From Alphaproteobacteria bacterium (lineage in GTDB: Bacteria > Pseudomonadota > Alphaproteobacteria > RF32 > CAG-239), in assembly GCA_017484225.1 (NCBI GenBank), contig JAFUTN010000044.1:4802-68801 (forward strand): 64,000 nucleotides of DNA, read 5' to 3'. Shown here in pieces: positions 2,115 to 64,000 of this stretch. The position numbers were made by a program, and so were the translations under genes. Numbering within the stretch: position 1 is the stretch's first letter; every line of letters begins with the position of its first letter. The notes beneath the pieces are model-generated. The model was not told the DNA's origin. It saw only the letters and a list, made by a program, of their open reading frames with translations, and ran no database searches.

Positions 2115-3794
2115 ATGGCCGCATACCAATATATATTTGTAATGCAAAATCTGACCAAAGTTCTGCCGGGGGGACGTGAACTGTTCAAAAACATTACTTT
2201 GTCTTTTTTGCCGGGAGCAAAAATCGGAGTTTTGGGAGTCAACGGCGCCGGAAAGTCTACACTGCTGAAAATCATGGCCGGCGTTGATAAAGATTATAAC
2301 GGCGAAGCTTGGGCTGCCGATGGCGTTAAAATCGGTTATTTGGAACAAGAACCACAGTTAGATCCGAATAAAAACGTTATGGAAAACGTTATGGACGGAC
2401 TTGGTGAAATTAAAGATTTGTTACAAAGATTTGAGGAAGTTTCCGCAAAATTTGCCGAACCGATGAGTGACGAGGAAATGAATGCTCTCATAGAAGAACA
2501 AGCTGACTTGCAAGAAAAAATTGATGCTTGCAACGGTTGGGATTTTGAGCGCACAATTCAAATAGCAATGGATGCTTTGCGCTGTCCACCGGCTGATGCC
2601 GACGTAACAAAGCTTTCCGGCGGCGAAAAACGAAGAGTTGCCCTTTGCCGCTTATTATTGCAAAAACCGGATATGTTGTTGTTGGATGAACCTACAAACC
2701 ATTTGGATGCTGAATCCGTGGCATGGCTGGAACGCCATTTACGTGAATATAACGGCACAGTGGTGATGGTAACTCACGACAGATATTTTCTTGATAATGT
2801 AACCGGATGGATTTTGGAACTTGACCGCGGTCAAGGTATCCCTTATGAAGGAAATTACACTTCTTGGTTGGAACAAAAAGAAAAACGACTTGCCCAAGAA
2901 GCCAGAGAAGAAAACTCACGTCAACGCACATTGGCTCTTGAATTAGAGTGGATTCATAAAAATCCTAAAGCTCGTCAGGCAAAATCAAAAGCACGTATTA
3001 ATGCTTATGATGAATTGCTGTCACAAGCAGCAAAAGAAAAAATCACCACGGCTCATATAAATATTCCGATGACCGAACGTTTGGGCGATTTGGTAATTGA
3101 AGCCAATCATATCAGCAAAGCCTTCGGAGACAAAGTTTTGATTGATGATTTATCATTCAAGATTCCCAAAGGTGCTATTGTCGGTATTATCGGTCCGAAC
3201 GGAGCCGGAAAAACAACTTTGTTTAAAATGATTACCGGACAGGAAAAACCGGATTCAGGCGAAATCAGAATCGGTGACACCGTTGATTTGGGATACGTTG
3301 ATCAATCTCGCGACGAACTCAGTGCCGACAAAAATGTTTGGGAAGAAATTTCTGACGGCTTGGATATGATTTGGCTCGGTAAAAACGAAGTATCTTCACG
3401 CTCTTATGTGGGACAATTTAATTTTAAGGGGGCGGACCAACAGAAAAAGGTCGGCAACCTTTCCGGCGGTGAACGCAATCGCGTTCACTTGGCAAAAATG
3501 CTCAGAAAAGGTGCTAATGTCATTTTGCTTGACGAGCCGACCAATGACTTGGATGTTGATACTTTGCGCTCACTGGAAGAAGGTATCATCAATTATCCGG
3601 GGTGCGTTTTGGTTACATCACATGACCGTTGGTTTTTAGACCGTTTAGCAACACATATCTTAGCTTATGAAGACAACGGACATGTTGAATGGTTTGAAGG
3701 TAACTTTGAAGAATACGAAAAGGATAAAAAAGCCCGCTTGGGTGAAGATGCCTGCAATCCGCACCGCATTAAATACAAAAAATTAACCAACTAA
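2115..3794 (+). CDS. ettA: Energy-dependent translational throttle protein EttA (ABC-F ATPase)
   Basis: Two ABC cassettes with Walker [10 protein letters not shown] and GPNGAGKTT, signature LSGGEKRRV and LSGGERNRV. Family-typical N-terminus MAAYQYIF and an inter-domain arm/linker. 559 aa. Confidence 0.9.
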
Positions 3795-9715: not shown

Positions 9716-11515
9716 CTACTCTTCACCGGACAGGTCCTTCTCTCCATGAAGAATCCGGATACTTTCTTTCGGCATATCATATTCCGACGAGAGCAAATTG
9801 TATTTTTCCGGCAAATTAGGCAAACCTTCAACACCAATCAGACGCACAAAAGTGTCATACAGCAAATCATTACTCCAATAGGCATTTTTATTGTTTTTGA
9901 GATTCTCCAGTTCTTGTTTCCGGCTGCCGGCAAACTTTGCCGATACATTCACCACAAACGGAATTCGGGCCATGCGATATGTAAAACGTGTACATTCGTG
10001 TCCGAGTTCGTTGTCGGCATCATCTCCATGGTCCGAAAAATATACCCACGCCATAAAATTAGGATAATCCCTCACCTTGTTATATATTTTTTGCAGAACA
10101 TAGTCTGTGTATAAAACACTGTTGTCATAAGTATCTATATTGCGGGTAGAACCGTAAAAATGCCGAAAATTTTTCGGATAACGATCGCGATAAGCCCCAT
10201 GGCTGCCCATTAAATGAATTACTATCAGCATTTTATCGTTGTCGTCCGCCGGCGGAATAGCATCTACTAATTTTTCATCATAATATGATGTAAAAATTTT
10301 GTCACCCGTATTCATATTCAACCAATGTTGCTCGTCAGCCAGTGAAGCCATCGTGGTAACCGGAGTTCCCATTACCTCATATTTTGACTGATTACTGAGC
10401 CAATACGTCTTAAGCCCTGCAGCCTCTGCAACCTCTATTATGGAAAAAGCATCCTTTAAATCAATATCATTATACTGATTTTTTTCACTCAGGGCATAGG
10501 TCAACGTCGGAATGGTATGGGTGTGATTTGAATAAGCGCGCTCAAAAACAACGGTATTTTCGTTTTGCGCAAATTCGCTTAACCAAGGAGTTGTCGGACG
10601 TTTATAACCATAAACATTCATGTGATCTTTGGTTTCCGACTCTCCGATTACCAAAACATAAATTCCGTTACTTTGAGAATCCAGTTGCATACGCAAAAGA
10701 TTTTTAAGCTGTGCAATACGATTTTTTTGCGATTTTTTAAAGTCGTCAAAACCATTAAGGGTAGCTTTTGTTGTTTGCACAACATTCACAACAAAACACA
10801 AATTTAATTTCGGCATTATGGAATAGGCACAGTAGCTGAGCCAAACCAGCGCAAAAGTATAGGGAATCAAGTTAAATTTTTTGCTTTTCAGCGTGCAGGC
10901 AAAGCATATATACAAAACAACGAATGCCACAATCATGACCGAACCGAACGCCCATAAATAAAGATTTTTGTCTTTCAAATAAGAGGCAATTTCATCTGGA
11001 TTTGTCTGAAAAAGCGTCAACATGATATCAGATGAAAAGATTCCGCCGTTTACTGCAGCATATCCCAAAAATAACAAGGCCGGCATAATAAAAAGCACAC
11101 AAGAAATCAAAGCAACAACGGACAATATATTTTTTACCGTTTTATCGGCACAGTGTTGAGAGGTGTAATACAAAAATGACAACACGGAAAACAAAATAAG
11201 CGCAAAGCCTATGGTATGCGTTATCTCACGTTCCATCAGTATCATATCACCCTGTAATTTCACAAATGCCGAAAGCAAATATATGCCGACAAAAACAGCA
11301 CACAGTATCAGATGTTTTTTACTGTTGTTCCACATAAATGTTAAACCGGTAAAAAGAAGCGAAAAACTGGCCACATACCCTAAATCGCGGCTATAATCAA
11401 GTGCTTCGCTTGTAAATAAGCGACATATCATTACAAAGGCAAAACACGCAAAAAAGATAAGAAAAAATTTTTTCACCCCATTTAAGGAACAATTATTTTT
11501 TATGTAGTCTAACAT
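9716..11515 (-). CDS. Phosphoethanolamine transferase (EptA/LptA-like; N-terminal 5-TM domain plus sulfatase-fold domain)
   Basis: N-terminal ~250 aa with multiple TM helices, then an alkaline-phosphatase/sulfatase superfamily domain (…VLVIGESETKDH…, …HLMGSHGAYRDRYP…). This architecture is typical of lipid A/LPS pEtN transferases. Confidence 0.7.
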   Translation of the reverse strand: MLDYIKNNCSLNGVKKFFLIFFACFAFVMICRLFTSEALDYSRDLGYVASFSLLFTGLTFMWNNSKKHLILCAVFVGIYLLSAFVKLQGDMILMEREITHTIGFALILFSVLSFLYYTSQHCADKTVKNILSVVALISCVLFIMPALLFLGYAAVNGGIFSSDIMLTLFQTNPDEIASYLKDKNLYLWAFGSVMIVAFVVLYICFACTLKSKKFNLIPYTFALVWLSYCAYSIMPKLNLCFVVNVVQTTKATLNGFDDFKKSQKNRIAQLKNLLRMQLDSQSNGIYVLVIGESETKDHMNVYGYKRPTTPWLSEFAQNENTVVFERAYSNHTHTIPTLTYALSEKNQYNDIDLKDAFSIIEVAEAAGLKTYWLSNQSKYEVMGTPVTTMASLADEQHWLNMNTGDKIFTSYYDEKLVDAIPPADDNDKMLIVIHLMGSHGAYRDRYPKNFRHFYGSTRNIDTYDNSVLYTDYVLQKIYNKVRDYPNFMAWVYFSDHGDDADNELGHECTRFTYRMARIPFVVNVSAKFAGSRKQELENLKNNKNAYWSNDLLYDTFVRLIGVEGLPNLPEKYNLLSSEYDMPKESIRILHGEKDLSGEE

Positions 11516-11582: not shown

Positions 11583-14399
11583 TTATTTTTCGGAAGTTTC
11601 ATAAGTATCGCCTAAATGATCTTCTGCAACTTCTTTTACTTTTTCAATAAATTTTTGTTCAAATGCTTTTCCTTTATCTGAATTAAAGTATTCATATTTA
11701 TACCACTGTTCATAAAAATTTTCGTATGGCTGAGGTATATGTGCATAAAAAATATTTATACCCTGTTTTCTGTATGCCTGCATTTTCTGTTTAAAATCAA
11801 GAATACGCGCCTGTTCATTTTTTGATATATTAACAAACAACAAAATATTATTTTTATTTTTTTGATTTAAATACTTGCCAAAATTAAGAACATCATTTGT
11901 TGAAATTTTTTCATCAACCGAACTCAATATAAATAATCGTTTGCCTGATGATAACATGACCTCAAAATTTTCAATACGCTTTTTATATCTGTCAATAAAC
12001 TTATCTTTGTCATATTGAGAACAATCCTGATCATGATTATAGTAAATACCATATTTAGAATTAATCCATAATTTATTTGTTTGATCCCACTCTAAATTGT
12101 TGAAATAATCACTAAATTTTGATTTAACCACTCGCACTGTTGAATTAAAAGAACATACACATAAGTCAAACGGACAACTAAGTTCACCTTGTTCTTTATG
12201 TGCTTTCATATTATATCTTGTTAAAACAGTTCTGGTAAAACAACATTCTCCCAAGCTTATGAAATAATTGTTAGGAAAAACAGCCTCAGAAATTTTCAGT
12301 ATTCTTTTCAAATTAGCCAAAGATTCTTGATAAATGTTCCTCTGCAACTTTTGTAAATTTTTGACTATACTCATGTAATGCTCATTAGACATTTCTATAG
12401 CATTTTTCATAGCATCTGACAAATCATTATTGGTTTTGTAACTGATAGAATTTGAATTATCAAACAAATTAACCGAAGTTTGAAATTTTTCAGCTATTAT
12501 ACAAGGAATACTAAAGCCGTATATTAACTGATAAGAACCGCTTGAACCACAACTGATGTAACGTTCATGTTGTTTATTTTCCGGATCAAATAAAGGCAAA
12601 TAAAAATCAGCCTTTTTCATTTCATTATACATATCTTTATAACTTAACCGACCCATGAAATCTATGTATGGTTTTATATGTTCGGGAACATTTAAATTGC
12701 CTGCTCTTGCTATAACCGTAACTTTAAAATTTTTAATACCTCTTTTTAAAATATTATCTATTGCATCAATCAACACAGAATGATTTTTACGTTCGCTTTC
12801 AATTTGTCCCACACATACAAATGTCGTTAAGTTATGTTTTTTTAGTCTATTAAAAGTTTCAAAAAAATGAGCATTTACCATAGACACATTTTCACTTTGG
12901 AAAATAGGAAGTTTATTTAAGGAAACAACCTTGAATTTATCGCTTTGGGGCTTAATATCTGCATATTGATCAGCATGATGACATAAAGTTAAGACCTTCC
13001 CTTTGGGAAGTTGAATATTTTCTCCAATATACTTCAAAACCGGCACAAAACCTTCATCATTAATATACACTCGGTCTGAATTGATATAAAGGTGCATATA
13101 TCTCTCTACAATATTGTGGGTGACTATTTTTAATATATCATTGCGAGACATTGCGAAGACATGAAACTTTTCATCCTTAATGCCTGCAAACGGTTCCAGA
13201 TTACTTTCTTCTTCCGTTAAACATACATCTACATTATACCCTAAATCCAAAAAATATTTAGCCATCCCCGGTAAACACTCTCCGTGAAAATAATTAAATT
13301 CTATCATTAGAACACTGTTTTCACGAACGTCGTGACATAAAAAATCATAAAATTTATCATTTTTTATTATTTTAACGTTTGGTGCCGGAAATTTATATTC
13401 GGAACAAAAAATAGGTATAAAACCAAAAAGATTATATTTTTTCTTTTCTATACATATCAAAGGTTTATCAAGATATAAATTTAAACTTTCTTCATTTTTT
13501 ATTTCTGCATATTCTTTATAAGATGAGTTTAAAGAATTCAAAACAATTATAAACTTTAGAATATATTGTTTAATTAACTCATATTTATCATTTTCTTTTG
13601 CCTTTCCAATGAATTCTATTAAAAAATGTATTCTGTCATAAATAAACAAAGCCTTGTCCTCATTATCTATTTTTTGAGACAAAATATATAAAATCAAATC
13701 ATCAAAAATAGAGCAAACATCAACTATGTGAGCAGGAGTTATTTTATGTGTTAGAGAATCATCATTATTAAAGTAGTGATAGTATACATCATCAATAATC
13801 TTGTAACTTTTTATATGACATAAAAAGTGGGCTATAAAATATAAGTCTTCGCCTAGTAAAGATTTCTTAAAACCAATTTTATTTTTCTCAACTATTTCCT
13901 TTTTATATAACGCGCTCCACCATTCATAAGTAAAGACAGCAACAATATTCCCTTTATGTTTTTTTATTATATTATTCAAAATTCCATTTTTATCAGTTTT
14001 TTTACCAGACTCGTATGCCGTATTTCCCTTAATTATATCTATCTCACCATTATTACTGTTTTGATAAAGTCTTTCATAAAAATTCTCATCTACCCAATCA
14101 TCTGCATCACAAAAAGCAAGATATTTACCTCTGGCCACATTAATTGCACAGTTTCTGGCAATAGCAGCCCCTTCATTTTTTTTATGGACAACTATTATTC
14201 TCTTATCCTTTGTTGCATATTTATCCAGAATTTGACCTGACCCATCTGAAGAACCATCATTAACACAAATTATTTCTATATTTTTAATTGTTTGTTTTAT
14301 TAAGCTGTTTAAGCATCTGCCCAAGAACTTTTCTGCGTTATAAACCGGAACTATTACACTTATAGCAACATCATCTGAGTTAGTTGAATTATTCACCAT
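11583..14399 (-). CDS. Multi-module glycosyltransferase: N-terminal GT2, internal K-Y-x-L-F-G-x-P-I-F tail repeat, then two further domains
   Basis: N-terminal SVIVPVYNAEKFL...CDADDW GT2 signature (DxD). At residues ~320-340, KKKYNLFGFIPIFCSEYKF matches the C-terminal tail repeat found on other GTs in the locus, suggesting a fusion to a downstream ~600-aa region with further transferase-like domains. Confidence 0.6.
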   Translation of the reverse strand: MVNNSTNSDDVAISVIVPVYNAEKFLGRCLNSLIKQTIKNIEIICVNDGSSDGSGQILDKYATKDKRIIVVHKKNEGAAIARNCAINVARGKYLAFCDADDWVDENFYERLYQNSNNGEIDIIKGNTAYESGKKTDKNGILNNIIKKHKGNIVAVFTYEWWSALYKKEIVEKNKIGFKKSLLGEDLYFIAHFLCHIKSYKIIDDVYYHYFNNDDSLTHKITPAHIVDVCSIFDDLILYILSQKIDNEDKALFIYDRIHFLIEFIGKAKENDKYELIKQYILKFIIVLNSLNSSYKEYAEIKNEESLNLYLDKPLICIEKKKYNLFGFIPIFCSEYKFPAPNVKIIKNDKFYDFLCHDVRENSVLMIEFNYFHGECLPGMAKYFLDLGYNVDVCLTEEESNLEPFAGIKDEKFHVFAMSRNDILKIVTHNIVERYMHLYINSDRVYINDEGFVPVLKYIGENIQLPKGKVLTLCHHADQYADIKPQSDKFKVVSLNKLPIFQSENVSMVNAHFFETFNRLKKHNLTTFVCVGQIESERKNHSVLIDAIDNILKRGIKNFKVTVIARAGNLNVPEHIKPYIDFMGRLSYKDMYNEMKKADFYLPLFDPENKQHERYISCGSSGSYQLIYGFSIPCIIAEKFQTSVNLFDNSNSISYKTNNDLSDAMKNAIEMSNEHYMSIVKNLQKLQRNIYQESLANLKRILKISEAVFPNNYFISLGECCFTRTVLTRYNMKAHKEQGELSCPFDLCVCSFNSTVRVVKSKFSDYFNNLEWDQTNKLWINSKYGIYYNHDQDCSQYDKDKFIDRYKKRIENFEVMLSSGKRLFILSSVDEKISTNDVLNFGKYLNQKNKNNILLFVNISKNEQARILDFKQKMQAYRKQGINIFYAHIPQPYENFYEQWYKYEYFNSDKGKAFEQKFIEKVKEVAEDHLGDTYETSEK

Positions 14400-22438: not shown

Positions 22439-22689
22439 ATCATCCTCTTGCTGTTAGTTTGCACCGGAAAAATTATATATAAATCAAGACTTAGTTGCCA
22501 AAATTACTTAAGTGTCATCAAAAAAATAGAAAAAGTTATATTTCTTGTCTTATACGGCCTTATTCCATAATAACCAATCAAGAGCAATCCAAATTATTGA
22601 CACAAATTTATCATATACAAAATTATTTGTCAAGTTCTATACCATAACTTTTTCTTATATGTTTAATTAAAGAAACATTAAACGAATTT

Positions 22690-22717
22690 GTTGCGTATTT
22701 TTCCTATATGCTATAAT
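22690..22717 (+). repeat. 28-bp perfect direct repeat, copy 1 (gttgcgtatttttcctatatgctataat), promoter-like
   Basis: Identical to 24388-24415. Contains TTGCGT...TATAAT with ~15-16 bp spacing and sits 5 bp upstream of the 22723 ORF. Confidence 0.9.
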
Positions 22718-22722
22718 AAGCA

Positions 22723-24321
22723 GTGCAAATGGCACGTCAACAAACGCCGGAAGCACGTTTCAAAATATCTGGAAATATTGATAAAATCAACCGCGGGACC
22801 GTTGACCGTAACGAGGCCTTTATAAACGAAATGTTCGGAAACAAAAGCGGTTTTGTAGCCAAAGAAGAAGCTATGCAGGCGGCTAAAGAAAAAGCACGTC
22901 CGCTGTTTAATGAACTTGAAAACATGGGGGATTTGGACCCTAATTTCACCGCTCGTAACAATTTGATAAATCAATTAAATACTAAAGAATATTCTGACAT
23001 TCCTTTTGGTTCATTACCAGAAAACATAAGAAAACAGGTTAATCAAATCAGAATAAATAGCGGGCAGAAACCATTAAAGTCTGATATGATGATTCCTGCT
23101 GGCGTGGTGCAAAAATGGAGAGGTAATAGAATGTTTGAAAATTACACTCCAGAAAGGATTGCACAAATAGCAGATGAAGTATATCATTCGCCTAATGTAA
23201 AAGTATCAGAAGGAGATTATCCTCATATTCAAAAGTTATTAAAAGAGCGTGAAGGACATAACAACGACTTTGTCGGCTTTATATCTCAAAATCCTAAAAC
23301 AGGGGATACGGTAGCAAAAACGGTATATCAAGTAAAAAGAAATGCCCAGACTGGGCGCCAACCAGTGTCGTTACAAGATAATCTTGTCGGCAGGAAGCGA
23401 CTCTCTGACCTACAAAGCACTTCTTCAGAAGATAATATACCATCACTTGGGGAGATTGTCAAGGGAAATGACGTTATAGCCGATGCGATAAGTAAGGTTA
23501 AACGCTCATATTCGTCATTAAAGAATTTGCCGGATACCGATGCAAGGGTTATTTTGGAAGCGCGTAAGCTTTTGAGCAAGCAAAGTGCAAACCAGCTTGA
23601 CAGCACCGCAGCATATCAGGCACGGCAAGCATTAAAAGAATTTGACCCTGCATTGAAAAATGTTTTCGGCGATAAGCTGGAGCAGGCAAACAAGCTGTAT
23701 GCCGGTGCGCATCAGTTTGAAAACGCTTATGAGCAAGGAAGCAATATTTTTAACAAAATGACACCGGATGAGTTCGGTACTATGTTTAAAAATATGACAG
23801 CCGATGAAAAAATTGCACTCAAAGGCGGAATGAAAGACGAGTTATGGAACATTATTCATGGCAGAGAAAATGAAACTCTGGGGTGGAAAAGAGTTGTACC
23901 GAAATCGGCACAAGATAAAATCCGTATGGCATTAGGGGAAAAAGAAGGCAATAAGCTGATTGCTTATGCCAATGCCGAAATCAAAAAAATGCGCAACTTT
24001 AATGAATTGTTGAGAGGCTCACAAACATCAGAAAAGCAGAAATTGCGCGATGGAGTGGGTTTTGTGCGCAAAATACTCAAAAATCCGACCGGAATTATCG
24101 GGGAAGTTTTGCCGGCGGCAAATGCCAGAAACAGAGGTATTGCCGAAATCATGACTAATCCGAGCGCAACAACAGCGCGGGAAGCTTTTAATCAGGTAGT
24201 TAATCCGACTTCCAAGTTAGAGGCTTTATATCAGGCGTTGTATAATCCGAGCGCAAGAACAACTGCCGTTAATTCGGCGTTGGCGGCCTATTTGGCAAAT
24301 ATGCCGCTGAAAAACAACTAG
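22723..24321 (+). CDS. Orphan 532-aa cytoplasmic protein (no recognisable domain)
   Basis: Long ORF, K/N/Q-rich, with no signal peptide or TM segment. Bracketed by 28-bp direct repeats. No motif I can assign. Confidence 0.5.
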   Translation: MQMARQQTPEARFKISGNIDKINRGTVDRNEAFINEMFGNKSGFVAKEEAMQAAKEKARPLFNELENMGDLDPNFTARNNLINQLNTKEYSDIPFGSLPENIRKQVNQIRINSGQKPLKSDMMIPAGVVQKWRGNRMFENYTPERIAQIADEVYHSPNVKVSEGDYPHIQKLLKEREGHNNDFVGFISQNPKTGDTVAKTVYQVKRNAQTGRQPVSLQDNLVGRKRLSDLQSTSSEDNIPSLGEIVKGNDVIADAISKVKRSYSSLKNLPDTDARVILEARKLLSKQSANQLDSTAAYQARQALKEFDPALKNVFGDKLEQANKLYAGAHQFENAYEQGSNIFNKMTPDEFGTMFKNMTADEKIALKGGMKDELWNIIHGRENETLGWKRVVPKSAQDKIRMALGEKEGNKLIAYANAEIKKMRNFNELLRGSQTSEKQKLRDGVGFVRKILKNPTGIIGEVLPAANARNRGIAEIMTNPSATTAREAFNQVVNPTSKLEALYQALYNPSARTTAVNSALAAYLANMPLKNN

Positions 24322-24387
24322 ACTTAATTTTATTTCAGGAGAAAAAATATGAAAGATTGCAAAGTAACAAAAAATGAAGAAGAGGCA

Positions 24388-24415
24388 GTTGCGTATTTTT
24401 CCTATATGCTATAAT
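24388..24415 (+). repeat. 28-bp perfect direct repeat, copy 2
   Basis: Identical 28-mer. Lies 25 bp upstream of a strong hairpin terminator, which would give a ~55-nt transcript. Confidence 0.9.
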
Positions 24416-24440
24416 CTTGCTCATCTTGCAACATAAATTA

Positions 24441-24477
24441 AACGGACGGGAGTTTGTCTCTCGTCCGTTTTTTTTGA
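24441..24477. terminator. Bidirectional rho-independent terminator (aaacggacgggag / ctcgtccgttt)
   Basis: 13-bp stem with a T-run on + and an A-run on -. Terminates the 24490..26553 gene (- strand) and any + strand transcript from the repeat promoter. Confidence 0.75.
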
Positions 24478-24489
24478 TGTCCGGATTTA

Positions 24490-26553
24490 TTATTTGAATT
24501 TATACGATACAATATTCCCCGACGGCATACATTCCGGAAATCCGGTAAAGTTGGAGCCGCATACAACATTAGGAATATTTTCGCATTTGTCGGCATATAC
24601 TTTGTTTAAATCGGTATTAACACCGAAAGCTACAAAACTCTTATCCGACATCAAATCCCAACTGTTGAAAATCATATTTTCACACACACTTTCAGACAAA
24701 TTGGTAAGGCGAATAATGAAAGCATCCTGTTTTTCTTCCACGCTGTTAAGTTGCGAAGAAGAAATATTAACGGTGCCTCCCAAAGCATGAACTATTGCAT
24801 TATTTGCCCCTATCATATCTTCGGGAACGACTCCAATCTTTTTGGCTGTTTCACTATTTAGTCCGCTGTAATCATCCTGAGTTGCATACATTGTGCGAAT
24901 ATTTAGTGCCAACATACTCAGTTGGTCGGCGACTTTATTTTCTTTATATTTATCCATTGCATTAAAATATCCGCTGTAAAATCCCATAGTGAACGGATCT
25001 GCCGTAACTTTTCCGCTATCTATCAGTTCTTTTACCTGCTTCATTTCTTTTTCAATGTCTTTCATTGTGGCATCTATGGCATTCATATCTATGTAATTTT
25101 CAATTTCGTTCTCAAAAATCCTTTTGCCGTTAGCTACAAAACCATTTTTTAAATCACCGGAAATAACATTTTCAACCTTGTTATCTTTATATGTAATGAT
25201 TTTTAAAGTAACCGCTTCTTCAGGAGACTCCATGAATGTTGAAAAATCAACACCTTTTTTAATACCGACTACACCGCCGATAATTTTTTCTCCTTTATTG
25301 TTAAGCAGCAAACCGTTAACGGAATCCAAAACATCGGAAATCTCCATTGCATATTCAGGCAACGCTTGCATAAGATGTTCCATTGCCACATCTTCCGTAT
25401 TTTCGGAAAACTCATTCAAAACATTATTCAACAGCTTTTTATAGGTAGCCTTAAATTTGTCATTAAATTTCATACCGAAAGACATTAAAGGCTTTCCGGA
25501 AACAGGATATGCCAGATTCAAAATTGTTCCCTTATCGGTAATTTTGAGTTCGGTCCCCGGTTTATTATCAAACCCGAAAAATGTTGCTTTCCACTGATTG
25601 GAAAAACCATCCATCAGATTAAAATCTCCGGTGCTTTCAAAAATTTTACGACCGTTTACCTGCATAAAGCTGTCGGAGCTGGTAATTTTACTTAATACGA
25701 CCTTTATCAATTTTACGATATCTTTATTTTCCTGTTTGGAAAAACCGAATTCACCGATTGCCGGTATAACCTCATCAAGACCTTTAATTATTTGTGTCTG
25801 TTCGTATTTATTGTTGCTGTCTGCCGATTTGAAAGAAAACTGATTTTTATCGGCATCATACGAAAAACTTATTTTAAATTTTCCTAAATTTTCCAATCCG
25901 TAAAGAGACGCATAAAGATTAACCATCTCCCCGCTTTTATCTTCACACGAAAAAGAAGAGTTTTGCGTAAATTTAGGATAAACAAATCCACCTTCATATT
26001 CACAAGAATATTCTTTCCCTTCTGCCGAGGCTGATGAAAAATCAAAACATTCCGCCAAAGCGGTAAATGTTTCCAAGTTGCCGTTTTCGGCAAAACTCTG
26101 AACTTTGGCAAACAAATTTTCATCTTCACAAATTATTTTACTGCCGACCGAAACAATATCATCTTCTTCTTTTTGCTGAACAGATAACACTCCGTCATTT
26201 ACCGAAAACTCTGTTTTGGAAAGTTCCGGATATTTTTCATGTGTATCAAAAGATACCGAGCCGGACAGCTTGCCGTTTGCATAATTTACCTTGATAACAT
26301 TTTGACCTGCAAAAATATCAGCTTCACCTTCTTTAACCCCGTTTACCATATTATATTGCTGTGAAATTGAACCATTCACATTGTATATGGTGTATTTGCC
26401 GGTTTTCTGAAAAAATTTTCTTTGCACCGTTGTATGGATTTTTCCGTCAGGATAATAAGTTGTTTCCGGTTGATTTCCCATCCACACTGCACCACCGCAC
26501 GCCGCAGCTATTATCGCACCGGCGGAAACAGAAGCAATTACCTTTGTTTTCAT
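24490..26553 (-). CDS. Large secreted/lipoprotein-like hypothetical protein (687 aa)
   Basis: Signal peptide MKTKVIASVSAGAIIAAACGG (lipobox-like AACG). Otherwise no recognisable domains; Asn/Ser/Gly-rich beta-type composition. Confidence 0.5.
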   Translation of the reverse strand: MKTKVIASVSAGAIIAAACGGAVWMGNQPETTYYPDGKIHTTVQRKFFQKTGKYTIYNVNGSISQQYNMVNGVKEGEADIFAGQNVIKVNYANGKLSGSVSFDTHEKYPELSKTEFSVNDGVLSVQQKEEDDIVSVGSKIICEDENLFAKVQSFAENGNLETFTALAECFDFSSASAEGKEYSCEYEGGFVYPKFTQNSSFSCEDKSGEMVNLYASLYGLENLGKFKISFSYDADKNQFSFKSADSNNKYEQTQIIKGLDEVIPAIGEFGFSKQENKDIVKLIKVVLSKITSSDSFMQVNGRKIFESTGDFNLMDGFSNQWKATFFGFDNKPGTELKITDKGTILNLAYPVSGKPLMSFGMKFNDKFKATYKKLLNNVLNEFSENTEDVAMEHLMQALPEYAMEISDVLDSVNGLLLNNKGEKIIGGVVGIKKGVDFSTFMESPEEAVTLKIITYKDNKVENVISGDLKNGFVANGKRIFENEIENYIDMNAIDATMKDIEKEMKQVKELIDSGKVTADPFTMGFYSGYFNAMDKYKENKVADQLSMLALNIRTMYATQDDYSGLNSETAKKIGVVPEDMIGANNAIVHALGGTVNISSSQLNSVEEKQDAFIIRLTNLSESVCENMIFNSWDLMSDKSFVAFGVNTDLNKVYADKCENIPNVVCGSNFTGFPECMPSGNIVSYKFK

Positions 26554-58600: not shown

Positions 58601-61600
58601 ATTACTTCCGTCCATATAAACCGCACTGTTGCCGGAATTATCTTTAATTACTGATGTGTAACCGACGTCTGTTGTTTCTCCGCTATCCGGATCGGTAACC
58701 GTTGTGCCGGTAACATACAAATTCACATCCTTATCGGCATAAATTGCACTGCCCTCTTCATCTGCTCTGGCAGACGAATTGCCTTTGAAATCAACATTCG
58801 TAAAATTTTGAATTGAATTTGCATCGGCAAATGTAAATGTATTCACGCCGTTGGTGAAAAGAACGTTATTGATATCATATTCCGCACCGTCTCCGGAAAC
58901 AAAACCGGTGTATTGGTTCAAATCAATCGTTGATTTTGTTCCGCCGGAATTACTCTTTCCGTTGATTACAAATTTTCCGGCACCGGTTGTTCCCATATAG
59001 TTTTGTCCCGCCAAATCGGAAACATATTCCGTCTCTTCCACAACAATTTTATCATTATTAACCACTTTTACATTGTTAAATGAGCCAAAATCAAAACTGC
59101 GGGAAGAAAATCCGGCGGCAGTTCCGTTCAATCTGTTAACCATTACGAGATTGTCACCCAAACCGGCTTCAATATCTTTACTGTATGTAGTCGGACCTTC
59201 CGTAATCACAAGACTGTCGTTTGTTGTATCTTTGGTAGCAAGTTTAACCGTGCCGTTAACGATTTCCGTCATTTTTCCGCGGGTATAATTTTCAGCCCAA
59301 TTTGTTTCAGATTCAACACTATCGGTATACGGCGCGCCGATTATTGAGCTAACCGGAAACAACAATCCCTCTACCGGACTACCGTCTTCTTCTTCCAAAC
59401 GAAGCTGAATATTGTCTTTATTGTTCATATTTTTAACGATTTGCAGCTTTTTCCCGCTTTCTTTCAAGCTGTTATAAGCATCAACACTAAAATCGGTAAA
59501 ATTAATTTTGCTCAAAGTAATATACTGTCCGGCATCCGCACTTTGGGCAACAATTCTGTCCCACCAATAAGTGCTTCCGGAGGTTTCTGCCGCCGAATTA
59601 CCCAGTGATAAATCTATTTCGTAACGAGCATTTTCGGTTGATGTAAACTGCCGGTATCCTTCCGGAATTGTTCCGTCTCCGCCGGAAAACTTGTATTCGG
59701 TATACATTCCGGATATTCCGTCATAGGAAACAGCATTTCCAAGCATACTGACGGTTATTTTATCAATATTTATTTCCCCTTGATTAAGTCTGGCATCTGA
59801 GGCACTTGCATAGTCCCATTTTATTTGGCTGTTCAGGTGGAATTTTTCCGTTTTTGCATCATTTCCACTTATTATGACTTTATATCCGTTAACACCGGAA
59901 ATACCTTGATTTAAATATATTTCTCCGCCGTTAACGGCATTAAATGTCACATTAACATCTGAAATTCCGACATATCCGGCAGCATCAGATCCTTCTGTCC
60001 CTGTTTGCCCGATTACAATACCGAAAGCACTGTTGCCAGCACTTCCAATCACAGTTGAAGCAACTACACCTTCAACATCATCATCTGTTGTAATATCTCC
60101 TAAATCAGTGCCATCGGCAACAATTTTAAAATCTGTTTTAGACTGTATGGCGTATCCCGATGTCGGAAGCAACCTGACATTTGTAAACGTTATGGTTTTA
60201 TCGCCGCTTTTTTTGGTTGTTTTGAAATCAAACAAATTGCTTGCATTTTGAAAAGCAACATTTTTAACGGTAAATGTATCGGCAAACGTTTCACGATAGC
60301 TACCGGTTTGTGAATTTTTATCAATATAAAATCCTCCGGCACCGTTGATTGTTGACAAGAAAATATTGCCGGAAGAATCTTTTCCCCATTTACCTTCAAT
60401 ATCAAATGACGTTCCGTGAATCGGAAGCTGACCGTAATATAAACCTCCGAAGATATCATATCTTGCTTTGCTTGAATTATACGCATAAACCTCATCTGCA
60501 TTTTGCGAAATAAAACTTCTGCTGACAGGAGCACCGCTGTCTGAATATGTGCAACTTGAAAGATTGCAAGTGACATTAGGAGACAGTGTTGTTGCCACCC
60601 ACAATGCATCAGCGGTTTTATCTCCCTTATCTTCTCTATCTTCAACTTTCTTTTCTAATTTATAAACACCGTTATCACCTTGCTTCAGATACGAAACTTT
60701 GCTTAAATATATTTTCTTTTTTATTGCCGACTCATAACCGAGTTCTCTTTGGGTATATTCAGCCGTATCCGGATCATAATCACTCATCCATGTAATTGTG
60801 TTATCAACATTTTCAAGTTCAACGCTGCCGCCTACCTGCTGTTCATAACTATTCCATCCTCCTTCTCCGGAAGCTGTCCAGCTTCCGCCTCCGGTTTTCA
60901 GGATAGTCCACTGCCAAGACCCGCTTTCGTCAACCGACGGAGTATCAAAAGAAAAGTGACTTGAATCAAATTTTCCGTTAAATATTCCGGTTTGTATAAC
61001 ATCACTACTGCCGGTAGAAAGTGCTGACATATAAAACCTTCCGTCACCCAGTGTCAAATCTCCGAATTTATACACACCATCCCTGTTGTCATATCTTGTA
61101 TCAAAATACACATAAGAACCGACGTTGATGTTGGAATCGGTAATTCCCACATCATTACTTGAACTTTCATTGTATAAATAAAACCTTCTGCTGCCACTTG
61201 AAGATGTAATATTTGTCGTCGTTGCACCGGTTATCAAATCATGAAGATGAACGTCCCTCGTCAAATTAATATTGAGAGTTCCGCCGTTCATATAAACAGC
61301 TTCATTTTTTCCGTTTGCCGTATTATGATTACCGGAATTTCCTATCTTCAATTCATTTGTAACATTAAGAGTTAAATTACCTCCGTCCATATAAACGGCA
61401 CCGCCGTGACCGCTGGCACTATTGCCGGTGATATTGGAAGCTCCGGTTATCGTCACATCTTTAGTGCTGTATATCGCGCCGCCGTTAGTGCCTGCACTGT
61501 TACCGGTAATATCACCGCCTATCGTTATTGCCGAGCCGGTATTATAAATTGCGCCACCGCTACCGTCATTTGTCTTGTTGTTTGTTAAACTGCCTATGGT

Positions 61601-61955: not shown

Positions 61956-64000
61956 TCAGGCGCGTCGCAAATAAGTTCCCATTACTTTATGCACACCTTT
62001 TGCACCAAAATCAACTTTGCATACCTGTCCGTCAACCTCTAAAATTTCGCCGTAACCGAAACTCTCATGGTATACACGAATACCGACAAGTGCGGAAGAT
62101 GCGCCGGAATAAGCATCATAGTTTGCATATTCGTCCTGATTATAATCATAATCCGATTTATAGCTCGGCTTTGTGGAAAATTGGTAGTTTTTTTTGCCGG
62201 AATAATACGAATTTTTACCGTATCCTCCGCCGTAAGAAGGCGATTTTCCGCTATAACAACCGCTGGTCTGATTGATAATCTGCACGGCAGATGACGGAAT
62301 TTCATCCAAAAAGCGCGAAGGCTCATTTTCCTGCAACTGACCATACAACATCCTTTGTGTCGTCGTGGTGATATACAACCGGCTTTTAGCTCTTGTTATT
62401 GCCACATAAGCTAAACGACGCTCTTCTTCCAAAGCATTTATCCCGCCTTCATCTATGCTTTTTTTATGCGGAAACAACCCCTCTTCCCATCCCGGCAAAA
62501 ATACGGTGTCAAACTCCAAACCTTTAGCCGAATGAAGTGTCATCAACATAACTTTGTTTTTATCTATAACACTGTCATTGTCCATAACCAGACTGACGTG
62601 TTCCAAAAATTCAGCCAAAGTCGGATATGTTTGTGTATCACTCATGGCATTAATCAACTCTTTTAAGTTTTCAATGCGTGCCGGAGCTTCAACCGAAGAA
62701 TCGTTTTTCAGCATATCCCAATAACCGGAATCCTCAAGCACTTCGGAGGCAAAATCTCCCGGCGTCAGTTCATTAACCTTTTTACGCCAATCGGCAAACT
62801 TGAACAGCAAATCATCCATATTTGCCTTGCTTTTACCGCTAAAAATCCCCTGTTCGTTCATCATTTCGGCGGCATCATACATGGAAACTCCGGAACGGTG
62901 AGCAAAATCACGAATTTTATCAATGGTTTTTGCGCCGATACCTCTTGCCGGTTTATTGATTATGCGCTCAAAAGCCAAATCATCATTTTTTTGCACTATT
63001 ACTCTGAAATAAGCCAATGAATCTCTGATTTCGGCACGTTCATAAAACTTTGGCCCGCCGATAACCTGATACGGTATGGCCTCACTGATAAATCTTTCTT
63101 CAAACTCACGGGTTTGCGCTGCCGTGCGCACCAAAACAGCCATATCGGAATAATTTTCTCCGGCACGACGCAAACGCATAATTTCTCCGGCAATCCATTG
63201 GGCTTCTTCCTTACCATTATACATACTCACCATTTTAATTTTACTGTTTTCCGCATACGAGGCCGGCGAATTTTCCGCAACCTTAAGAGTTTTTCCCAGT
63301 CTGGTAGAATTATGAGCAATCAAGCTGGAAGCTGCCGCCAAAATATTTGCCGTTGAACGATAATTGCGCTCCAAACGTATCACTTTTGCATCCGTAAAAT
63401 CTTTCTGGAAGCGCATAATATTTTCAATTTCGGCACCGCGCCACGAATAAATTGATTGGTCATCATCACCAACACAGCACAAGTTGCGGTATTTTTGGGA
63501 TAAAAGTCGCAAAAACAGGTATTGGGTAACATTGGTGTCTTGATACTCATCAACCATAATGTATTTAAACTGCTCCTGATATTTTTCCAAAACCTGCGCA
63601 TCCGACATCAAAATATAGAGTGTATAAAGCAAAATATCACCGAAATCCACGCAATTCAGCTCTAAAAGGCGCATTTGATATTTTTTGTATACCTGCAGCA
63701 AAACATTCGGTCTGTAATCGCGTTCGGCACGCTCCACCGTAATACCTTTGTCTTTTAAACGAGAAATACTTTCAACCAAACTTTGCGGAGGATATTTTTT
63801 ATCATCAATCCCCTCTGCTTCTAAAATTTGCTTAATCAGGCGTTTTTGATCATCTTCCCCCAAAATGGTAAAATTTGACTGCAAGCCCGCAAGATGTGCA
63901 TGACGGCGCAAAATTTTCGCACACACACCATGAAAAGTTCCGAGCCACACACTTTCGGATGCTTCACCGATAAGCGACTGCACACGCTCGCGCATTTCTT
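61956..64000 (-). CDS. UvrD/PcrA/Rep-family DNA helicase (N-terminus beyond the window end)
   Basis: Contains helicase motifs (…WLGTFHGVCAKIL…, …MVDEYQDTN…, …VGDDDQSIYSWRGA…, …NYRST…, …TLHSAKGLEFDTVF…, …LAYVAITRAK…). The Met at 63995 is internal, since the reading frame stays open to base 64000. Tyr/Gly-rich linker before the C-terminal Tudor-like domain. Confidence 0.85.
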   Translation of the reverse strand, partial: EMRERVQSLIGEASESVWLGTFHGVCAKILRRHAHLAGLQSNFTILGEDDQKRLIKQILEAEGIDDKKYPPQSLVESISRLKDKGITVERAERDYRPNVLLQVYKKYQMRLLELNCVDFGDILLYTLYILMSDAQVLEKYQEQFKYIMVDEYQDTNVTQYLFLRLLSQKYRNLCCVGDDDQSIYSWRGAEIENIMRFQKDFTDAKVIRLERNYRSTANILAAASSLIAHNSTRLGKTLKVAENSPASYAENSKIKMVSMYNGKEEAQWIAGEIMRLRRAGENYSDMAVLVRTAAQTREFEERFISEAIPYQVIGGPKFYERAEIRDSLAYFRVIVQKNDDLAFERIINKPARGIGAKTIDKIRDFAHRSGVSMYDAAEMMNEQGIFSGKSKANMDDLLFKFADWRKKVNELTPGDFASEVLEDSGYWDMLKNDSSVEAPARIENLKELINAMSDTQTYPTLAEFLEHVSLVMDNDSVIDKNKVMLMTLHSAKGLEFDTVFLPGWEEGLFPHKKSIDEGGINALEEERRLAYVAITRAKSRLYITTTTQRMLYGQLQENEPSRFLDEIPSSAVQIINQTSGCYSGKSPSYGGGYGKNSYYSGKKNYQFSTKPSYKSDYDYNQDEYANYDAYSGASSALVGIRVYHESFGYGEILEVDGQVCKVDFGAKGVHKVMGTYLRRA

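Follow-up and report, generated by a model that had tools for sequence, protein, structure and literature searches.

In the type II-C CRISPR (short palindromic repeats, clustered and regularly interspaced) arrays of Neisseria meningitidis and Campylobacter jejuni, the CRISPR RNAs (crRNAs) are transcribed from promoters embedded in the repeats themselves (PMC5965381, PMC12477760; Zhang 2013 and Dugar 2013, as reviewed in PMC5965381). These promoters initiate at about the 6th nucleotide (nt) downstream of the repeat, within the spacer (PMC12477760, PMC5965381, PMC4607530). The II-C repeats listed in Table 1 of PMC4607530 include those of C. perfringens, GTTATAGTTCCTAGTAAATTCTCGATATGCTATAAT, whose 3' end is ATATGCTATAAT, and of Neisseria, GTTGTAGCTCCCTTTCTCATTTCGCAGTGCTACAAT. 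Other arrays are orphan or degenerate, having mutated repeats and no nearby cas genes, and collapse by recombination between their repeats (PMC8616872, PMC8047081). Here we describe a locus that resembles both kinds of array. It lies in a 64,000-nt (64-kb) stretch of alphaproteobacterial DNA, referred to below as the window, and we put at about 80% the probability that positions 24349-24477 are the downstream end of a decayed array of II-C style, cas-less and orphan as far as is visible, on the chromosome of an alphaproteobacterium, as yet uncultured, from gut or rumen. The location is chromosomal, as the window encodes GyrB, glycogen phosphorylase, isoamylase, and glycosyltransferases, and the nearest named genomes are metagenome-assembled genomes (MAGs) of uncultured Alphaproteobacteria from rumen and faeces. 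The evidence is wholly computational, drawn from short-read metagenome assemblies. The structure of the locus recurs in several independent assemblies, and thus is not an assembly artefact.

Within the window, the repeat is represented by two exact copies of a 28-mer, GTTGCGTATTTTTCCTATATGCTATAAT, which stand 1,670 bp apart and do not by themselves have the regularity of an array. An 18-nt core of this 28-mer, allowing up to 3 mismatches, is found twice, versus 0.11 times expected from shuffled sequences. Sister strains, whose isoamylase, RNase H, and 687-amino-acid (aa) genes are 97-100% identical to those of the window, reveal the full repeat. It is 36 nt long, GTTGCGTATTGACTGGAATTTCCTATATGCTATAAT, with the sister-strain form GTTGC(G/A)TATTGACTGGAATTTCCTATATGCTATAAT, and the 28-mer is this 36-mer minus 8 internal nt, GACTGGAA, with which the -35 box is lost. 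At the position of copy 1, sister contig L007 has a full 36-nt repeat, GTTGCGTATTGACTGTAATTTCCTATATGCTATAAT; at the position of copy 2, L005 has an intact 36-nt repeat, followed by the same trailer as in the window. Starting at this second position, L006, L035, and L036 contain repeat-S1-repeat-S2-repeat, with 36-nt repeats, 30-nt spacers, and a period of 65-66 nt, while L037 has the same repeats with two other spacers (30 and 29 nt). The sister strains therefore present regular, near-identical repeats separated by unique spacers, at least 3 repeats being visible before the contig end. Spacer S1, ACCGCCTGCGTATCGTGTCAATGTATGGCG, has a match over all 30 of its nt (30/30) in a viral contig from IMG/VR (L033), where the site lies at the 3' end of a tail-collar fibre gene. 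This match is not background, because four other 18-20-mers searched as a control, including those from S2 and from the right end of the insert described below, have no viral match. The spacers are thus strain-variable, those of L037 differing from those of L006, L035, and L036, and at least S1 derives from a mobile element. Together, the regular 36/30-nt geometry, the strain-specific spacers, and the perfect phage protospacer identify the repeats as those of a CRISPR array. A further, degenerate terminal repeat in the 36 nt after the trailer was considered and dropped, given an identity of about 33% (counted by eye).

The anatomy of the repeat is that of the II-C arrays of N. meningitidis and C. 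jejuni. It has a length of 36 nt, begins with GTTG, alternates with spacers of about 30 nt, and has the 3' end TGCTATAAT, which by sequence comparison corresponds to the σ70 -10 box gnTAnaaT of II-C repeats preceded by a TG extension. The intact repeat reads TTGACT-16 nt-TATAAT plus the TG extension, scoring 11/12 against the σ70 consensus. As in II-C arrays, each repeat could initiate transcription a few nt into the next sequence, and the array faces a convergent gene. That gene, which encodes the 687-aa protein, occupies the place of the cas operon in a canonical II-C locus. Unlike in II-C arrays, no cas9-cas1-cas2 genes and no trans-activating crRNA (tracrRNA) are found within the 64 kb, the repeats in the window are each 8 nt short, lacking part of the would-be tracrRNA-pairing region, and one spacer slot is filled by 1.7-2.2 kb of phage DNA.

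Transcription at the array end would follow from this anatomy. The 3' end of each repeat would act as an extended -10 promoter, firing into whatever adjoins it, as in Neisseria and Campylobacter. After the last repeat, where no further spacer or repeat follows, transcription would start at ~24421-24423 and stop at a hairpin followed by U8, yielding an RNA of about 55 nt that consists of some 20 unstructured nt and the hairpin. Such an RNA cannot be a crRNA, because there is no downstream repeat, and is not a tracrRNA, because it contains no anti-repeat. The most likely explanation is run-off from the promoter in the last repeat, a by-product that would have no guide function. The trailer is kept in L005 and L007, with 2-3 changes within its first 5 nt in the latter. 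If the RNA exists, it should be more abundant in L005, where an intact 36-nt repeat precedes the trailer.

The hairpin itself (24440-24470) has 13 pairs, 7 of them GC, followed by 8 T, the GC-rich stem and U-tract typical of a rho-independent terminator, and it is the sole strong element in a 130-nt fold of the region. Its predicted free energy is -22.5 kcal/mol (z = -6.4) on the + strand and -19.8 kcal/mol (z = -5.0) on the - strand, where the U/A tract is weaker. The terminator is common to L005, L007, and L030, the sister strains whose contigs reach it. It would end transcripts of the array and of the 530-aa gene between the repeats, shielding the convergent 687-aa gene from antisense transcription, and can probably end the 687-aa gene as well. 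A search of Rfam with the whole window and the locus gives only a tRNA elsewhere above threshold; sub-threshold matches at the hairpin are noise. A first-pass annotation of this region had described a promoter repeat, a transcription start at ~24422, and a strong terminator after copy 2, and had allowed that the hairpin might simply serve the convergent gene. Much of this holds. The terminator is as strong as it had stated and is conserved, the start agrees with the documented initiation site of II-C repeats, and the - strand fold is compatible with service to the convergent gene. The promoter repeat is indeed promoter-like in its intact form, a property that it owes to being a II-C-style repeat; however, its CRISPR nature had gone unrecognised, the form present in the window has no -35 element, and the 530-aa gene had not been seen to be phage DNA.

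This phage DNA fills the spacer slot between the two repeats. Along its whole length, the protein encoded by its 530-aa open reading frame (ORF) shares 60% identity with residues 277-806 of P0005, a phage protein of 806 aa, and it is 48% identical to P0006, of 809 aa; it matches PHROG 5880 (function unknown) and no Pfam family. The 806-aa and 809-aa genes lie in phage structural modules beside capsid, Phage_stabilise, tail-fibre, lysozyme, and integrase genes. Downstream of the 806-aa gene, L017 and L018, both phage contigs, carry in turn a 36-aa Lys-rich ORF, a terminator, and a tail-fibre gene (in L017, a 389-aa tail-collar fibre gene). Between the repeats of L005, L006, and L037 stand, correspondingly, a 530/531-aa ORF, a 34-aa ORF, a terminator, and a 121-codon ORF, which in L005 aligns to residues 1-117 of the tail fibre, right up to the repeat. 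At the left junction, A-V-Q-M-A-R-Q comes straight after the repeat, versus A/T-I-Q-M-A-R-Q in the phages. Homology thus reaches within a few nt of both repeats, at points that in the phages fall in the middle of coding sequences (codon ~274 of the 806-aa gene and codon ~118 of the tail fibre), and the repeat is missing from the related phage contigs. From the phage gene order, the homology up to both repeats, and the repeat-free phage contigs, it follows that a contiguous segment of about 2.15 kb from the structural module of a temperate phage came to occupy the spacer slot. The long form is carried by samples ERZ28634448, ERZ27298145, and SRR33675014. The segment retains this length in L005 and L006, versus 1,670 bp in the window, where its GC content is 40.6%, versus 25.5% for the AT-rich stretch upstream of copy 1. 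This stretch may be the array leader. Searches of IMG/VR with the 530-aa protein and of GenBank phages with P0005 gave nothing relevant. The 121-aa ORF found only its own cluster, which led to L035-L037.

The insert is not uniform among strains. Central codons 71-245 of the 530-aa ORF (~22940-23460) are swapped, while the N- and C-terminal parts are near-identical. In L006 and L007, this central ~500 bp carries 132-139 non-synonymous differences in about 170 codons, and in L005 it is partly diverged, all in frame. The swap looks like the result of recombination with different phages; an exchange of the whole insert as a cassette was dropped as an explanation, since the divergence is confined to ~22940-23460. 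Spacer S4 of L037 (1241-1269) shares 14 contiguous nt, GCGCGGATTGTAAA, with phage L019 (12357-12370). The match lies on the antisense strand at the 3' end of the phage 809-aa gene, a member of the gene family to which the captured gene belongs, and is marginal (E ~0.03 in a small local database). A search of GenBank phages with spacer S3 gave nothing relevant.

The 21-codon ORF that precedes copy 2 is, on comparison of the strains, a chimera and a broken leftover of a phage gene. The 34-36-aa phage ORF supplied its codons 1-10, the end of the tail-fibre fragment its codons 11-13, and the repeat its codons 14-21 together with the stop, a TAA (24412-24414) that lies within TATAAT. Relative to L005, a 484-bp deletion has removed two-thirds of the small ORF at the 3' end, along with the terminator of that ORF and, but for the last 9 nt, the whole tail-fibre fragment (121 codons). 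L007 has the same deletion junction, with GAAGA microhomology. Compared with L007, the window has also lost TT, shifting the frame to ...NEEEAVAYFSYML, which ends within TATAAT. As a result, the strains encode different peptides. L005, L006, and L037 have a 34-aa peptide, MK(N/D)CKVTKNELKKSGMPLRQTLAAKGAKIKIKKK, ending in ...LKKSGMPLRQTLAAKGAKIKIKKK and followed by its own terminator; L007 has a 31-aa peptide, MKNCKVTKNELKRQLRIFPICYNSRSSCNIN, which traverses the repeat in another frame; and the phage contigs have the 36-aa homologue. The strong ribosome-binding site (RBS) of the 21-codon ORF is explained by inheritance from the phage small ORF, as the same AGGAGAAA...ATG context is found in L017, whose 36-aa ORF has an AGGAG RBS (MNKGCKVTKNDLKKSGMPMRQTLAAKGAKINPKKKK). 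As such, the ORF is unremarkable, since 138 ORFs in 9 kb reach 20 codons or more.

The intact small Lys-rich ORF has the consensus M(K/N)..CKVTKN(E/D)LKKSGMP(L/M)RQTLAAKGAKI...KKK (L005, 11624-11728; L017, ~10280-10390; remnant in the window, 24349-24378). With its strong RBS and its own terminator, it is kept, as a 34-36-aa ORF, between the virion-protein and tail-fibre genes in phages and host inserts alike. It has no match in PHROG.

Taken across strains, the array appears in several states (Table 1). The repeat lacking 8 nt fills the first position in L005 and L006 and the second in L007; the window has it at both. This mixture of 28-nt and 36-nt forms implies gene conversion or recombination between repeat copies or strains. 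The strain forms fit a progressive collapse of the array with exchange between repeats (PMC8047081). In this, the locus resembles the orphan and degenerate arrays described above, as its repeats are mutated and its ordinary spacers number at least 2 in L006 and L037 and zero in L005 and the window. Unlike in those arrays, every strain seen retains, as its remaining "spacer", a phage fragment the size of a gene, the ORF of which is intact.

Table 1. Features of the array end and its surroundings (window coordinates), followed by the strain forms (R, repeat, with its length in nt)
Feature	Position	Strand	Remarks
AT-rich non-coding stretch, 25.5% GC	22439-22689	+	97-100% identical in sister strains; no anti-repeat
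Repeat copy 1, 28-nt degenerate form	22690-22717	+	keeps extended -10 TGCTATAAT
Phage-derived insert in spacer slot, 1,670 bp	22718-24387	+	gene order of phage contigs L017, L018
Intact 530-aa ORF	22729-24321	+	starts 12 nt after copy 1; no Shine-Dalgarno sequence
Shine-Dalgarno AGGAG	24337-24341	+	7 nt before ATG at 24349; from phage small ORF
21-codon chimeric ORF	24349-24414	+	peptide MKDCKVTKNEEEAVAYFSYML; strain comparison with L005, L006, L037, L007
Deletion junction	24378-24379	+	484 bp of L005 (11654-12137) absent in window
Repeat copy 2 (terminal), 28-nt degenerate form	24388-24415	+	extended -10 TGCTATAAT at 24407-24415
Array trailer; unstructured 5' part of predicted ~55-nt transcript	24416-24439	+	putative start ~24421-24423, from II-C biology (PMC12477760)
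Predicted two-way intrinsic terminator	24440-24478	both	13-bp stem, 5-nt loop, + strand U8, - strand UUUAAUUUAU
Convergent 687-aa gene	24490-26553	-	Pfam: PilS/Bundlin-like C-terminal domain; 98.7% identical across strains
Strain form, L006 and L037			R28 - insert - R36 - spacers...
Strain form, L005			R28 - insert - R36 - trailer
Strain form, L007			R36' - shortened insert - R28
Strain form, window			R28 - shortened insert - R28

Several observations weigh against the reading of the locus as a II-C-style array with a promoter-bearing last repeat. The assignment to type II-C comes from repeat anatomy, not from Cas9, and so denotes a style rather than established membership in II-C proper. No cas9 is found in the 64 kb, where all ORFs of at least 800 aa encode housekeeping or surface proteins (GyrB, glycogen phosphorylase, an autotransporter, or a glycosyltransferase), and no Cas domains appear in the gene tables for 10 kb on either side in four strains; an adjacent, convergent cas9-cas1-cas2 operon is absent, and neither cas genes nor a tracrRNA turned up in linkage with the repeat anywhere. 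Likewise, a duplex scan of both strands of the 64 kb found no tracrRNA anti-repeat (to about nt 1-24 of the repeat; GTTGCGTATTGACTGGAATTTCC). Exact scans for the 36-nt repeat found none in GTDB genomes, IMG/VR, or JGI metagenomes. A looser repeat-gap-repeat pattern gave two chance matches that are not arrays, and none in viral contigs, and a search for spurious ORFs translated across such arrays, by which cas-linked copies might be reached, found none. In the sister arrays, only the first two spacers are visible in each, as the contigs break inside the array, and with two spacers per strain the polarity of the array (its leader end) is not settled. A viral match exists for 1 of the 4 spacers (S1), the scan of the viral collection having covered S1 and S2. 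As for the promoter, a simple σ70 scan called none at either copy in the window, because the 28-nt form has no -35 box and only the extended -10 TGCTATAAT; that copy 2 is transcribed is thus a prediction that applies if the promoter still fires after this deletion. Finally, the four alleles of the 530-aa ORF that are seen in full are all intact, with more synonymous than non-synonymous differences in the C-terminal part, so that the insert could be a gene in use rather than passive relic DNA.

Apart from the complements of the repeats themselves, the duplex scan returned one weak match. This best non-self match is a repeat-like stretch, TTGCCGTATTATGATTACCGGAATTTCCTATCT, at 61306-61355 (+ strand) within a 2057-aa autotransporter gene; the complement of this stretch pairs with the CRISPR repeat at -28.7 kcal/mol, probably by chance. 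The idea that the trailer RNA is tracrRNA-like was dropped, as the scan showed no complementarity between it and the repeat.

How did phage DNA come to lie exactly between two CRISPR repeats? The most likely origin is a double recombination, in which two ordinary spacers would have recombined with their protospacers, some 2.2 kb apart on an infecting phage. Such an event would explain why both ends of the insert coincide with repeat boundaries. The 5 nt that follow the first 30 nt of the insert (CGGAA) are similar to the 3' flank of the S1 protospacer (CAGAA). This comparison, of two sites only, is a weak hint that the first 30 nt may once have been a normal spacer selected by its protospacer-adjacent motif. 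No protospacer was found for the right end of the insert. An array held stably in a chromosome with a phage segment between two former spacers has, to our knowledge, not been described. Recombination between CRISPR spacers and phage protospacers is, however, documented (Varble et al. 2019, as presented in PMC8616872). There, too, phage DNA and a CRISPR array are joined through homologies of about 30 bp; as PMC8616872 relates it, the outcome in that system is phage particles that transduce CRISPR loci, unlike the stable chromosomal array seen here. Comparison with an empty site is not possible, because the GTDB MAGs of related species (67-82% identical in isoamylase) have no RNase H, insert, or 687-aa gene beside isoamylase.

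An alternative that concerns the origin only is that Cas1-Cas2 inserted an over-long prespacer at the leader-proximal repeat and duplicated that repeat, in a casposon-like manner. The precision with which repeats bound the insert on both sides suits such an event. However, the length of a spacer is normally set tightly by the integrase, and we know of no natural precedent for the integration of a kilobase prespacer by Cas1-Cas2. The insert does have the AT-rich upstream region on one side and the remaining array on the other, the place where new spacers enter (PMC12477760), though the unsettled polarity takes force from this argument, and the CGGAA/CAGAA likeness, at its two sites, better fits a spacer extended by recombination. 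Thus, this route is unlikely, and double recombination remains the favoured origin.

Two other explanations are less probable still. In the first, the 28-nt copies are attachment (att) sites or a target-site duplication of a mobile cassette that carries the 530-aa gene and has nothing to do with CRISPR. Perfect direct repeats around a single foreign gene, and a resolvase gene about 8 kb upstream in L006, would be in keeping with such a cassette. Yet the same sequence builds regular 36/30-nt arrays with strain-specific spacers, one of which matches a phage; the insert has no integrase or transposase and cuts two phage genes mid-ORF; and 28-nt and 36-nt forms are mixed between positions across strains. 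In the second, repeat-insert-repeat came ready-made from a phage mini-array or solitary repeats and entered by repeat-repeat recombination. Virus-borne mini-arrays and solitary repeat units, in which repeat-spacer-repeat units accompany phage genes, do exist, and they have been proposed to recombine with host arrays (Faure 2019 and Medvedeva 2019, as cited in PMC8616872). In contrast to the units treated in PMC8616872, the context here is a bacterial chromosome, with gyrB and glycogen genes, and it counts against a phage-borne unit that the related phages have no repeat and run as continuous coding sequence through both junctions.

The least probable reading of all is that of the first-pass annotation, which casts the transcript from copy 2 as a functional small RNA and the 21-codon ORF as either an attenuator's leader peptide or a type I toxin. 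Everything on which it was built is in place: the RBS, the ATG at 24349, the ORF, its stop in TATAAT, the repeat, and the hairpin are all where they had been reported, and a compact set of small ORF, strong RBS, promoter-like element, and strong terminator does recall attenuators and type I toxin-antitoxin loci, the promoter and terminator being kept in the sister strains that reach them. Nevertheless, the peptide is unconserved even among strains with at least 97% identical flanks (34-aa, 31-aa, and 21-aa versions in three strain types, with differing C-termini), the ORF is a recent deletion-plus-frameshift chimera, there is no downstream + strand gene to regulate, the next gene being convergent, alternative pairing is not needed, an overlapping antisense partner is lacking, the peptide MKDCKVTKNEEEAVAYFSYML is largely polar and, as read from its sequence, has no hydrophobic helix typical of type I toxins, and no Rfam family matches at threshold. 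The annotation had itself named a lack of conservation of the ORF or terminator in relatives as refuting; the terminator is conserved and the ORF is not, which contradicts the leader-peptide and toxin readings.

Of the surrounding genes, the 687-aa gene encodes a protein with a PilS/Bundlin-like (type IV pilin-like) domain at residues ~534-646, an unusual C-terminal position, and with a signal or lipobox-like sequence at its N-terminus. The host RNase H gene was considered as possibly phage-derived and dropped, being only 25% identical to phage RNase H. L006 has resolvase and sulfatase genes (1607-2194) where the window (~11583-14399) has a 938-aa glycosyltransferase, and L005 differs downstream in the glycosyltransferase cluster, indicating that the surface-polysaccharide gene cluster varies between strains. 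Elsewhere in the window, a UvrD-type helicase (61956-63995, - strand) has strong PADLOC matches to GajB/DRT-helicase, and an ABC-type ATPase (2115-3794, + strand) has PADLOC matches to mad3/AriA-like proteins. Both are probably housekeeping paralogues, not defence genes.

Repeat-embedded promoters, orphan arrays, and intrinsic terminators are already known, and in the reading of the locus as a decayed II-C-style array, the small ORF and the short RNA are debris. They carry a caution, as each of these signals, be it a strong RBS, a consensus promoter, or a terminator, can be an inherited remnant. The strains place II-C-style repeats with built-in promoters in uncultured gut Alphaproteobacteria, in a cas-less array caught at different stages of collapse. 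The unusual part is the kilobase-sized phage segment in the spacer slot, bounded exactly by CRISPR repeats and retained across strains. We know of no description of a gene-sized phage fragment that is so bounded and kept in all strains. Should spacer-protospacer recombination be its true origin, the segment would record in nature a process for which the evidence has so far come mainly from laboratory work. Expression of the captured gene from the repeat promoter, if it occurs, would make this a case of a CRISPR repeat reused as a gene promoter. A more speculative proposal, which we regard as doubtful, is that the array holds the ~2.2-kb phage piece as a substitute for a spacer, captured either by recombination of two spacers with a phage or by Cas1-Cas2 integration of a long fragment, and that the truncated virion-protein gene is kept intact, refreshed by phage recombination, and expressed from the repeat promoter as a factor beneficial to the host, for example as a dominant-negative decoy against related phages. 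Such refreshing from incoming phages would account for the swap of the central module between strains. If this were true, it would amount to a second, protein-based use of a CRISPR locus.

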